Below, one piece after another: positions 52,723-62,883 of a stretch of DNA of 64,000 nucleotides (position 1 is its first letter; each line of letters starts with the position of its first letter). The position numbers and the translations under genes are program-made. Source of the stretch: Stylophora pistillata (Eukaryota); assembly GCF_002571385.2 (NCBI RefSeq), contig NW_019218526.1, positions 20,359-84,358 of the forward strand, read 5' to 3'. The notes below the pieces were generated by a model. That model was given only the letters and a program-made list of their open reading frames with translations, did no database searches and was not told where the DNA came from.

Positions 52723-53042
52723 TTAGTCGTTACACTTTTTACATTTGCAACTTTCAGTGATATACTCTTCAACAACGCTCCTTGCATCGGGTCGTCCAAT
52801 CTTTTCAAGTTTAACCATGAGTTGTTCGATGGGAACATTCCTACAGCCCGTCAGAACAGCGTCCATTGGATTCTGAAGGGACTGAAAGTATATGATTTCG
52901 GCCCACGTGAAGCCCATTTCGCCGCAGAGATCACGAAAATCGCCTTTCCACGTCATACGTGGATTGAGCATAATCATGAGCTGACGGCACACTCTAAATG
53001 GTAAACTTCCAATGGCGCCTTTGGCTTTGCAACGCCGCAAAC
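52723..53042 (-). CDS. Terminal exon encoding a death domain (MyD88-type) ending in CxCxxC, paralog 1
   Basis: LMIMLNP....GDFRDLCGEMGF...EI..F....NPM.AVL......IEQL...LEKIGRPDA; acceptor CAACTAG at 53043; upstream exons uncertain (candidates ~53264-53592 and 53753-53789). Confidence 0.7.
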
Positions 53043-54074
53043 CTAGTTGTGAGATCAGATGATTGTAATTAGAATGGAACATATTTTCAGGATAGTCGTG
53101 AACAACGACTGATTTCTTCATGGTATAAACTTAACCTTTCATAAAGGAGAAAAATAATTAACTCTTCAGTCAGCTGCTACTCAGGGTATAGTAACGTTTA
53201 AGTCGACGTTGATTATTTCCTAGCTGGATGTTAACGAGTAAGAGAAAGAGTTGCAAAAGGTACCCTGACATGGTAGTTACTACAACCTTATGAACTTCGA
53301 AATAAACTACTTGGATGTTAAGGCCCAGTAAAGGTCAAGTAAGCAACCAATTTTGTGCTCTCGCCATTGCTTTTGGACCTATTTCTCTTAAGAAATTTGA
53401 AATCATTTCATGGCTTATTGAGGAGAATGCTTGACTCAAATTTTTTCGTCGTATAAGGACACTGGGAGATCATGGGCGAACCTGCGCCATCTTCTGTTTC
53501 TCCACTTGCTTGGCCATCTAACTCATTTGAAGTCTCCATGAGAGAATCGTCTGAGAGCCTGAAGTCTCTTAGAATCAGGTGAATCTCTATAACTAGAAAC
53601 AAAAACCAGTGAGTGATGCACCTGATCAGTTACAATTTAGTATCTATGGGAAACTACATCTTAAGGTAGGTATTATAATGACTTAAACGGTTGTCGGTCT
53701 TGCGGAAAAACAACCAAGGGAAGAAAAAAACCTCAATTGATTGTCATCGTACCTTTCTTTTCATACTCTTCTTTTTCGCTGCCAGCCATTGTCTGTTTTC
53801 TCTTTAAATCTTCTTGCTTTGAAAATCTGTGCAGACGTGATCTGTAACTGTAGAGCTTTTCCGGCCTTAAATAACCGAATTAGGCCACGGTATGACTTCC
53901 CCCTTTTTTCAAACCTCACACTTGCATAGTGAAAAAAAAGGAAATAAAGTCAGTGAAACACACTGGGATAACAGTGGATAACAGTGTATAACTATTGGCA
54001 ACAGTAAAATAACAGTGAGACAATTCTAAAATTATCACCACTAATCGCCGCAACCGCCGCTAATTTATCACCAC

Positions 54075-54115
54075 TAATCGCCGCTTGGCATAGCAACTCC
54101 GCCCACGCCCCTTTA
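54075..54115 (-). promoter_or_regulatory. Candidate promoter motifs upstream of DD paralog 1 (GC box, RFX-like half site)
   Basis: GGGGCGTGGGCGGAGTTGCTATG on the minus strand; adjacent duplicated TTATCACCACTAATCGCCGC. Confidence 0.3.
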
Positions 54116-55154
54116 AATCGTGATGATGGCGGCTTACTGCCTGACCTCTGTTCACGCCTCGTCAGAAAAAACGGCAGCGAATTAGTGAGCATATAATTAA
54201 AAGAGCCTCTTTTTGCAACGATCAGCTCCCGGCCCCTGATGAAGGTACTACACAGGAAAGTCGAAATGTTGAGTGGAAGAATTGTCATTTCGGTTACATT
54301 TAGTAAATCTTTAGACCAGCTGAGTAGCATCAAACCATGTCCCTCCCGCTTCCTGTACATTTATTTACTTATTTATCTTTCGCGCTGCTATGTGAATTGA
54401 CATATAAGCTCATTGCTATGGGCTGCGTGTTCATGTGTAACGGGAGATAAAAAACAAGTTGAGTTTGGAGTAACGTGAGCGGTGTTGTTGCGAATAAAGT
54501 TAGTTTCGTCTTGTAAATTGACTACCCGAGGGTAAAGAGCAGTGAGGAAGGAATATGGTCGGCCCTTAAGCCACTGATGGCCACTGCTTCTTGAAGTTCC
54601 TCGACTTGAGGTTGGATTTCTCGACTGATCGCAGAGAGTTTCTTCGAACACGCAGACGGCTGTTGCAGAAACAGCAGTGTTTTTAATCTTTTTAATTGAC
54701 TACTTAAAGTTCCTTAATTAAAATTGGACTTCACGACTCACAATTGCAGAGCCTTCTTTTCAACACTCAGCGGCTTGTTACAGAAATAGCGGTGATTCCG
54801 GCAAACCCTCTCAATAAACAACTCGAAGTTCCTCGATTGGATGAGAGATTTCTCGACTGATCGCTGCGAAGAGTTCTGTCAAACAGTTACCAGCTTGTTG
54901 CAAAAGCGGTAGAGACTTTTTTATACTCTATCATACAGATGCATATTCGTCTGAGCCGTGTCAAACGAACCCCATCGAACAACTTCCAATGCAACTCTAA
55001 TGCAAAAACAATTTCGAAGCCTCCCTATGCACCTACACGAATTTCTTTTTTTTTGCCTCACGGTACACCTGGATATTTGTCTGAGTCATGTCAATGGAAC
55101 CCAATCGTCCGCTATACTTTCCTTAATTTTTTCAAAAATCGCCAATCAACTTCC

Positions 55155-55415
55155 CGGCGCGCGGGATCGGTCTCGAACTTAGTCACAGCGATTTTATCGG
55201 AAACGGCTAAGAGTAAACTCCCCGGCACTTGCACGGTCTCAAAATATGTCACAGCGATTTTTCTCGAAAATCACTAGGACTTAACTCCCTGGCACGGGAA
55301 CGGTCTCAAACTTCAAAGCGAACTGCTAGGCGCGGGAACGGTCTCGGATTTAGTCCGAGCGCTTTTTATCTAAAATTGCTTAGACTACTTTGCCCAGTAC
55401 AGGCACGGTCCTGTA
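55155..55415 (+). repeat. Regularly spaced GGCACGGGAACGGTCTC-like motifs (5 copies)
   Basis: Copies at ~55156, 55224, 55291, 55329, 55402; related GGCACGGCCAC(A/G)GTC motifs at 59378-59515. Confidence 0.6.
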
Positions 55416-60176: not shown

Positions 60177-60254
60177 GTTGCGATCGCAAGTTTTTGAGTT
60201 GCGATCGCAAGTTTTTAAGTTGCGATCGCAAGTTTTTAAGTTGCGATCGCAACT
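60177..60254. repeat. 20-bp tandem repeat with palindromic core TTGCGATCGCAA (4 copies)
   Basis: GTTGCGATCGCAAGTTTTT(G/A)A repeated. Confidence 0.9.
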
Positions 60255-60727
60255 GTTAAACTGCAAACTGGGGATCACAGTTCGTATCGGCTCGGCAACA
60301 AAAATCGAAATCCGATGTCCGCCCCCGTACGCCTGCATGTTCCTACCTCACGACTTTCACATACCCACGTGAACAAGTCGTCCATGATTTACGATTTACA
60401 CCAACCTCATTTCTCCTTCTTGATTCTTGCTCTATATAGATGCCGAGTTCACAATCACATAGACGCTGACCATGTTTCCTCTTACTAGTATTTACTGTTG
60501 CGGGCCAGACATGATTGTCTTGATGCATTATAAGTATTCTGTGTGATTCTTTCATTACCAGTGTTTCTCATCGGACTGATCGTTTTCTGGTGGTGAGAGA
60601 TAGTTGACAGACAGGCCTCCAAAATGTTTTCTATCAGAATCTCATTGGGTCTGGTGGGGTTCGATGGACATGAATGGAATCTAGTGTTTTCCATTGGAAT
60701 GATCGATTTTCTGATGGTGACAGAAAA

Positions 60728-60930
60728 GCCTCCCGGTTAGCTCAGTCATAGAGCGCTGGACTGTTGTGCGGGAGGTCGAGGGTTCGAGCCCCGGCCGGAC
60801 CAACACTCAAGGTCTTAAAATAATTGAGAAGAATTTGCTACCTTTCTATAACATCAATAAATGGTTAGATATTCTAGTCTTCTCGGATAGGGACGAATGA
60901 ATGGACGCCCCGTCTCCTGCAGGGTTGGGG
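60728..60930 (+). mobile_element. tRNA-derived SINE
   Basis: A box TAGCTCAGTCATAGAGC, B box GGTTCGAGCCC, followed by non-tRNA body ACCAACACTCAAGGTCTTAAAATAA...GTCTTCTCGGATA. Confidence 0.8.
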
Positions 60931-62545
60931 TAGGAGACGTTAATTTCCCACACACGAGATTACTGTGTGATGGATGTCCTCCCCTGGGGTGGGATGNNNN
61001 NNNNNNNNNNNNNNNNNNNNNNNNNNNNNNNNNNNNNNNNNNNNNNNNNNNNNNNNNNNNNNNNNNNNNNNNNNNNNNNNNNNNNNNNNNNNNNNNNNNN
61101 NNNNNNNNNNNNNNNNNNNNNNNNNNNNNNNNNNNNNNNNNNNNNNNNNNNNNNNNNNNNNNNNNNNNNNNNNNNNNNNNNNNNNNNNNNNNNNNNNNNN
61201 NNNNNNNNNNNNNNNNNNNNNNNNNNNNNNNNNNNNNNNNNNNNNNNNNNNNNNNNNNNNNNNNNNNNNNNNNNNNNTTGTCTCTAAGACAGAGAATCAC
61301 ACAAATTTTCTCATGTCAAAGGCGGCGAATTGTCGTCGCTACCTCTCCGCGAACTGTCGCGACTTGTTTTCAAAGCTGTACACATGAAGCAGCCTGACGC
61401 ACAGACGGGTCGTTTTGTCAATTGACTACTTGGGATTAGCAAGCAGTGAGGGAGGAACATAGTCGGCCCCTAAGCCATAAATGACTATGACCTTGTCAGT
61501 TGACTACCTTAGTGGTATCAGGAGGTGAGATGAAGCATGGTCGGCCTTTTAACCAAACAACTTGAGGGACGTGGTTGAGTAGGTGAGTTTTGGAAACAGT
61601 AAACATGGAGAGAAAGGGCGGAAAAACCAGTCATTTTGTCACTGTGAGGACGGATTATAGTTGACCCTTGAGAAAATGTAGTCACAGGGTTTCTGCAGAG
61701 TTTATCATATGTAATTTAACCGAGCGGTAGGTTTTGACTTTCTAATTTCTTTAAAACATAATGACTTCCGATCCCGCTGATCATTTGGCGTAAGTCCCCC
61801 AAAATTTCAGACTCTGCTAGGAGATATCTGGAAAATATCAAATGTCTCCACTGGATAGCTTATATTTCGTAGTCTCAAACTCTTCGAATCAGCTTCTTGA
61901 AATAGCTCACCATCGTATCTGGCACTACCAATGGTTTGTCATAAAAGTCGAAGCCAACCATGATGAAAAACTCACATTGCAGTTCAAACCTTTGTTATCA
62001 TTATTTTCTCGAGTGATTTTCCCTTTTTTGATCGATTTTAAACAGAAGCACTCGCAAGAGCTTCATACCAATTATGCGCGTACTCTCTTGACAGAAGACC
62101 GCGAATTCAGTGGATGTCTACGTCAAATGTATTCTCAGGTGGACAAATCTATTTGGTTTGGCTGTATCGTAAACTACGTTCGTAGCAGTCTAGGGGGGTT
62201 ATGTTTGAGAAAAGGAAAACACAAAGCATTTAATGAAGATAGTTAGCAGCCTCCTTGTCTTTACGCCACAAAAATTAATCTTGATAAAAATGCTCCCACC
62301 GAGTAAAATCCATTTCATGAAATTTTGGCCTTGTCTAGACATAACTGTATCTAGCGTTCTCTAAAAGGCCTTCGTCGAACATTAAAAACATATCTGCGGC
62401 GTCAAAGAATGAAAGTCAGAAATACGGTCCAACTAATCAAGCCGTTCGTCATTTCCTCAACTGCAAAGCGCTTTGTTTTTGAAATTCCTGTTATGTAAGT
62501 ATAATACAGAAGAAAACTACATTTTAACTAAAAAGAGATTAGTTA

Positions 62546-62883
62546 TTAAACTGATCCAGCCGGTTGATCGCTGCAGCTTGAACATTGGCAATTTTCCCTC
62601 AGCCACTTTAAAATTATTCCTTTCACGTCTTCCCGTCCAATTTCTTCTACTGTAATCGCAAGGTCCTCGATTGCGACATTCCAAGAGCTCTTTAGAACAG
62701 CTTTGGTCGGATTCGACAGGGACTCGAATTCTAAAATTCTCTTCACGTCGAAGCCCAATCCGCCGGCGAGGTCACGAAAGTCGCCTCCCAACAAGCGCAA
62801 TGGGTCCATCTTAATCATCAGCTCTCTCCAAACCCTCCATGATAAACTGCCGATGACATTTTTGGCTTTGCAATGCTTTGAAG
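62546..62883 (-). CDS. Terminal exon encoding a death domain ending in CxCxxC, paralog 2
   Basis: HCKAKNVIGSLSWRVWRELMIKMDP....GDFRDLAGGLGF...SLSNPTKAVL...IEDL....EEIGREDV...CQCSSC; acceptor AAACTAG at 62884, same phase as paralog 1. Confidence 0.7.

Follow-up and report, generated by a model that had tools for sequence, protein, structure and literature searches.

The question raised by this locus is what kind of protein ends in a death domain (DD) with cysteines on either side and a stop codon directly behind. Two such exons, A (52723-53042) and B (62546-62883), lie on the minus strand of the 64,000-nucleotide stretch of contig NW_019218526.1 that was analysed here (the window), and each encodes a DD, a CxCxxC motif and the stop. 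They represent an apparently undescribed DD subfamily, which is real and spliced and in which the cysteines probably form a zinc clasp.

In a six-frame scan CKAK started at 53031 in exon A and at 62872 in exon B, IGSL at 53013 and 62854, and CxCxxC at 52749 and 62590, respectively, all on the minus strand. This confirmed the original observation that both exons keep the first two blocks ahead of the domain and the third behind it, followed by a stop. The cysteine before the domain is encoded at 53029-53031 in gene A and at 62870-62872 in gene B, the CxCxxC motif at 52732-52749 and 62573-62590. About 85 residues of domain separate IGSL from CxCxxC in both exons alike, and the last cysteine is followed by 2 residues in A and 8 residues in B before the stop. 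The exons have a 16-base acceptor context (CTGATCT..AACTAG) and phase 1 in common, and their domains were 46% identical in amino acids over 104 codons without gaps. Among the 121 N-free stop-to-stop frames of at least 80 amino acids in the whole window two ended in CxCxxC, i.e. exons A and B. A family profile search did not find a third copy in the window. Chance or an assembly artefact was rejected as the source of the exon pair; A and B are tandem paralogues. The ratio of nonsynonymous to synonymous substitution rates (dN/dS) between them was about 0.5 with a dS of 0.9, which is near saturation. A dN/dS of 0.13 given for anemone MyD88 in PMC5094078 was obtained by another method and is only loosely comparable. 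Furthermore, B was 77% identical to XP_022805584.1 of Stylophora pistillata. Judged by such relatives the DNA would be that of a stony coral, probably a pocilloporid, and the RNA data sets with a label in which it occurs were for the most part coral metagenomes.

Exon B, the last coding exon of its gene with cysteine, DD, CxCxxC and stop, corresponds to residues 97-208 of the transcript-derived Logan protein P0003 at 100% identity, which sets the gene B product at 208 amino acids. Residues 1-96 of P0003 had no match in the window, and the upstream exons of gene B, i.e. the start exon and the repeats, lie outside of it. Because the perfect exon match stands behind 96 residues encoded elsewhere, P0003 must derive from a spliced transcript. 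A contig over B from the poly(A) RNA run X2 ended at the acceptor. The first 96 residues include two 41-amino acid repeats modelled as long helices, of which a Stylophora relative has one; a fold search with the full B model returned nothing named for these helices.

For gene A the splice evidence comes from one run, X2, the contigs of which gave a product of 155 amino acids. The joints 55798>53920, 53753>53592 and 53482>53042 are all GT-AG, and X2 also showed a joint from 55798 to 53592 with GT-AG ends that skips exon e1b. The 5' exon e1 (55798-56160, minus strand as all exons of the gene), an X2 contig piece with joints to 53920 and 53592, matched residues 1-33 of the Stylophora protein P0002 at 51% and is a paralogue of the first exon in the Stylophora orthologue of gene B. 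None of its ATGs is in frame with the DD; they make short upstream open reading frames (ORFs). The alternative exon e1b (53753-53920) has the start codon at 53789 and contributes 12 codons in phase 1, with the frame open through the DD; the N-terminus encoded here resembles those of P0010 and P0068. The part encoded by exon e2 (53482-53592, 111 bases, phase 1-1) is briefly hydrophobic and then passes into an acidic linker; the exon also has an in-frame Met, and its joint 53039>53479 (GT-AG) carries an in-frame 3-base deletion variant. The 155-residue frame runs from the 12-residue start through segment and linker into the DD. If e1b is skipped, the first in-frame Met, that of e2, yields 125 amino acids with the whole domain kept. 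The ends of e1 (55798-55836) and e1b are nearly the same over the 13 bases before the donor, and both exons resemble the start exon of gene B. By sequence comparison, the first exon was duplicated inside gene A, with one copy now out of frame.

The last coding exon of gene A (52723-53042), with cysteine, MyD88-like DD, CxCxxC and stop, is followed by a transcribed 3' untranslated stretch (52599-52722). X2 contig 9 covers 52599-52896 with a GT next to it, and the X2 contig through the A stop carried 646 further letters without a match on the window. There may be a splice donor at 52599, 124 bases past the stop, which may make the transcript a target of nonsense-mediated decay. Because the contig runs past the stop up to this GT, the A exon is perhaps the last coding rather than the last exon. 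The claim of two paralogous last exons held for acceptor, phase and identity, but only in this modified sense for A. As had been proposed, transcript data defined the upstream exons of A, and both genes are transcribed and spliced.

AlphaFold with a 22-row alignment of the A domain as input produced six helices with a pLDDT of 91, i.e. the six-helix death fold. The top PDB sequence match of the domain was the MyD88 DD with an E-value of 1.5e-4, or 5e-10 with the family profile. Foldseek also placed the MyD88 DD first (TM 0.77, E 0.009) with no match reaching an E of 0.001, and VIA-align scored it at Z 12.8 with a root mean square deviation of 3.5 over 97 residues, tied with the DDs of NF-kB p105 and p100. 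The DDs of p75NTR, UNC5 and NF-kB were close runners-up, and those of Pelle/Tube and NRADD were among the fold matches. The Pfam Death score (PF00531) of A and B was 16.8 compared to a curated cut-off of 22.6, which is reached by the relatives P0006, P0018, P0020, P0025 and P0034. Atlas matches, taken as leads only, were to Death clusters (0.88-0.90) and to clusters without a name (below 0.9). The predicted MyD88-like death domain is thus borne out by model and fold searches. It falls into the MyD88/IRAK/p75/UNC5 group of DDs without being MyD88 itself. MyD88, the DD of which is represented by PDB 3MOP and 6I3N, carries this domain N-terminally with a TIR domain behind it, whereas in A and B it is C-terminal without a TIR at about 25% identity.

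We rejected the reading of A and B as truncated MyD88 or IRAK. The DD is the last domain, the transcripts have the stop after CxCxxC and neither a TIR nor a kinase follows, as had been noted originally. None of the 76 minus-strand frames of at least 45 amino acids between 44000 and 64000 had a TIR or kinase match. In IRAK and Pelle the DD is N-terminal and leads into a kinase, in Tube into a long tail, whereas the DD comes last in A, P0003, P0002, P0018 and P0085. A receptor tail was rejected as well. TNF receptors, p75NTR, NRADD and UNC5 have a transmembrane helix upstream of the DD, yet the highest 19-residue hydropathy was 0.86 in A and 0.85 in P0003, and P0003 matched no receptor Pfam family. 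Likewise, the Rel homology domain and ankyrin repeats that precede the DD of NF-kB p100 and p105 had no Pfam match in P0003 or the window frames, and the products measure just 155 and 208 amino acids. A known receptor or adaptor was looked for in the upstream exons and none is encoded. A and B are small cytosolic proteins with one DD and without TIR, kinase or membrane anchor.

A full database search with the A domain returned 36 representative matches. CxCxxC stood right after the DD in 19, the tail was broken or missing in 6, and the remainder were 3 fragments that stop short of the tail, 5 other DDs and 3 low-complexity proteins; a cysteine run in P0023 was left uncounted as CxCxxC. Members with a species name were found in Stylophora, in three species of Pocillopora and in Actinia tenebrosa, an anemone; most members are nameless, and the database names are 'uncharacterized' or 'death domain-containing'. 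Pairwise identity of the full-tail rows was 27-74% with a median of 37%. A and B are members of a hexacorallian family of small DD proteins, and the expanded family that was foreseen from the window has several members in corals and an anemone. No other domain follows the module in these proteins; the one exception is P0056, a 551-residue gene model, where further DDs stand behind a tail-less copy. The N-termini ahead of it vary: B has amphipathic helices there, P0085 a pair of FADD/RIPK1-type DDs, and P0018 a 290-residue region that had no Pfam or PDB match. In several distant members (P0018, P0019, P0025, P0032, P0028 and P0039) CxCxxC is directly followed by a few conserved residues, Gly-x-Leu-Arg or similar, which are possibly a binding or degradation signal.

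The trees left out the low-complexity P0012, P0016 and P0037 and the short or broken P0005, P0010, P0011, P0015, P0030, P0033 and P0038. A and B formed a clade with three relatives at a support of 98/93. Within the tree B grouped with its intact Stylophora orthologue (97/88), which places the A/B duplication before that split. In a first tree with distant FADD-type DDs the outgroups were scattered. One outgroup DD, P0026, has an N-terminal cysteine that aligns with the family cysteine across a two-residue gap, in a frame that seems to enter an intron; from this alignment the family may be wider than listed. A word-index search gave no match for A among longer proteins and two for B, and two long ones with the profile. 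In metagenome contigs none of 427 pattern matches with the B query was a relative. The one locus found in contigs with P0006 as query, L001, was rejected, since the family profile had no match there and it reads like a bacterial gene, which we take to be MnmG/GidA.

The cysteines are what sets this family apart. The N-terminal cysteine was present in all 11 CxCxxC matches that reach its column, and in 14 of 14 full-tail rows when A, B and P0085 are included, as expected if the four cysteines are conserved in homologues. In 5 of the 11 the best search stretch began after this cysteine, so that it was not selected by the search. The invariance of the cysteine columns equals that of five core positions; for the tail columns it results from selection. 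Confidence in the B model jumped from 55 to 95 with the block that the first cysteine opens and dropped after the last one, and the models of A and B have a one-turn helix around the last cysteine. Because the four cysteines are co-conserved, the C-x-C-x-x-C spacing is fixed in 19 of the 36 matches and the model confidence rises at the first and falls after the last cysteine with a helical turn there, we consider it likely that the cysteine before helix 1 and CxCxxC after helix 6 are a four-cysteine zinc site that clamps the ends of the bundle. A complex prediction of two P0003 with zinc had a score of 0.02 without contacts and was taken as evidence neither way. The Trp that MyD88 and most outgroup DDs have after helix 4 is missing from the family members, and the loop there is shorter; that the clasp might make up for this is a speculation.

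We found no four-cysteine metal clasp on a DD, in this narrow sense, described in the open-access literature, supplements aside. A joint search there for 'death domain' and CxCxxC returned only a paper on separase, which compares CxCxxC and a nearby His to zinc-binding motifs (PMC5921967). Gamma-butyrobetaine dioxygenase has, according to a title cited in PMC13257696, a structural zinc. P0002 matched its family PF06155 at an E of 0.003, and the B tail agreed with its CxCxxC stretch in 8 of 12 positions at an insignificant E of 0.85. Both enzymes have the same CxCxxC spacing; the folds are unrelated and the likeness is local only. The zinc ligands of the dioxygenase are presumably the CxCxxC cysteines and a distant His. 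Unlike in dioxygenase and separase, the fourth ligand in A and B would be a cysteine. Precedents are also found on other death folds. Zinc at Cys10/His73 of the CARD9 CARD is described in PMC6624267 as hindering filament formation. This is zinc on a death fold next to long helices as well, but the site is experimental there and inferred here, the domain is a CARD and not a DD, and the ligands are Cys10 and His73 as opposed to four cysteines from both ends. In the NLRP3 PYD conserved cysteines at both ends of the death fold are likewise brought together, yet there are two of them in a disulfide of a large NLR, compared to four in a small stand-alone protein. The original impression of a clasp not recognised in described death-domain families stands for a four-cysteine DD, for which the open-access literature showed no case, and has to be narrowed in view of CARD9 and NLRP3: death folds controlled by thiols or a metal are already known.

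Several observations about the tail weigh against the zinc clasp. It was broken or missing in P0005, P0008, P0011, P0013, P0015 and P0033, i.e. 6 of the 36 matches, so that the clasp is dispensable in some lineages. It was lost in the Pocillopora counterparts of Stylophora LOC111328923, which keeps it, and also in P0068, the closest relative of A. P0008, P0013 and P0068 keep the N-terminal cysteine without a full tail, which would not be expected of a strict four-cysteine site, except if the losses happened recently. Tail loss occurred repeatedly, and the tail-less Pocillopora counterparts, P0068 and P0013 all kept the N-terminal cysteine. A single origin of the family was neither supported nor rejected by a core-only tree (p-AU 0.089).

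How would such a protein act? We suggest that A and B would act by DD-DD contacts and join or cap a helical DD assembly, either as adaptors or as decoys that compete for it, with the variable N-terminal part setting what the module couples to and the zinc site pinning both bundle ends together. Single death-fold proteins without enzymatic or TIR domain, i.e. Drosophila Tube, NRADD/p45 and the CARD-only and PYD-only proteins, serve as adaptors or decoys. Yet NRADD differs from A and B by its membrane helix and Tube by having the DD first instead of last. We know of no four-cysteine bracket in any of them. The likeliest target would be the MyD88-IRAK complex. PMC5094078 and PMC9897584 report MyD88 in anthozoans including corals, with one copy in the anemones examined. 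Given that the fold resembles that of MyD88 and that corals have MyD88, MyD88/IRAK is a plausible partner by analogy, albeit a somewhat doubtful one. The whole explanation, a DD-only adaptor or decoy family with zinc clasp and a Myddosome-type target, is in our opinion evenly balanced between right and wrong.

The partners may also be apoptotic or NLR-type DDs (FADD, RIPK1, PIDD, TNF receptors or DD-bearing coral NLRs) or further copies of the protein itself, with the same proteins and the same clasp; we regard this as unlikely, yet to be taken seriously. P0085 and P0087 consist of two FADD/RIPK1/PIDD-like DDs and a clasp DD, and the fusion in P0085 implies that other partners than MyD88 are possible. 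TNF receptor and NLR families are expanded in corals. Moreover, the likeness to MyD88 amounts to about 25% identity, other DDs are within 1 Z unit in VIA-align, and the full B model ranks p75NTR just above MyD88, which comes third; these data weigh against a Myddosome-type target. On the other hand, MyD88 came first in sequence, profile and both structure searches of A.

Alternatively, the cysteines could be targets of lipidation or redox reactions and not zinc ligands, e.g. an S-palmitoylation tether or an end-to-end disulfide, which we consider improbable. The first tail cysteine aligns in the PDB sequence alignment (numbering from the chain range) with Cys113 of human MyD88, a residue reported as palmitoylated in PMC11026845, and the NLRP3 PYD has a disulfide, Cys8-Cys108, by which helix 1 is linked to the loop behind the domain (PMC10121800). 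The persistence of the N-terminal cysteine after tail loss fits this reading, too. However, an invariant four-cysteine spacing at 27-74% identity fits a tetrahedral metal site better, since acylation tolerates variable spacing. In addition, A and B look cytosolic, where stable disulfides are rare, and the tail is not a CaaX box. The aligned stretch of MyD88 has only this one of the four cysteines, and the alignment hints that the clasp may have grown around an older cysteine. We favor the zinc site, which would most simply be structural; it may also be a switch for assembly that responds to zinc or redox conditions. It is a long shot that a labile clasp senses zinc or oxidation and upon release switches the protein between joining and capping MyD88-type filaments; this would link oxidative stress, as in bleaching, to innate immune signalling of corals and anemones, and the paralogues without a clasp would be versions fixed in one state.

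Two sets of data on the window genes are not as expected for functional adaptors. Eight of the 11 X2 variants listed in A exons change a residue, as under relaxed constraint, and two raw-read RNA runs, of which about 2% was read, gave a depth of at most 0.5 in bins over the upstream coding exons of A and no depth on gene B. Run X1 has coverage over introns as well and therefore contains DNA or pre-mRNA. Yet it is very improbable that the family is real but A, and perhaps also B, is a duplicate in decay without present function: the variants, the low expression, the out-of-frame first exon, the possible intron 124 bases after the stop and the frameshifted tail in the closest relative of A (P0068, P0005) are set against a 155-residue frame intact across three canonical joints, no listed variant that creates a stop or hits a bracket cysteine (0 of 11), a gene B that groups in the tree with an intact Stylophora orthologue (97/88), so that the duplication is older than the split, and a dN/dS below 1.

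Other features of the window were noted. Between A and B, a plus-strand transcript with a THAP domain (56519-57792; ORF 56598-57038, E 1e-9) starts about 360 bases from the 5' end of gene A, head to head with it, and is overlapped by a minus-strand frame of 297 amino acids (56803-57696) with a Cys/His motif and without a Pfam match. Both are well expressed in 4 of 4 RNA runs and are probably a transposon-derived pair. Repeats at 60720-60996 and 59647-59707 were very abundant in RNA runs. By eye the former looks like a tRNA-derived short interspersed element; ARAGORN found no tRNA in it. Long transposon-like frames occupy 43347-51496 of the plus strand, with MULE/ZSWIM/ALS2CR8 at 45903-46727 and SWIM, a Ulp1-like protease, PHD and a 12-residue repeat array at 48887-51496. 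Exons at 777-15800 on the plus strand encode a receptor tyrosine kinase (kinase match 9634-10071) that also has Ig-like domains and is unrelated to the DD genes.

The members of the family, with about 105-200 amino acids, fold confidently, and natural clasp-less variants exist, so that the idea is cheap to test. If confirmed, a metal-dependent class would be added to the well-studied DD fold, and corals would have, next to MyD88, a group of rapidly evolving DD proteins without a TIR that could adjust the MyD88 pathway.

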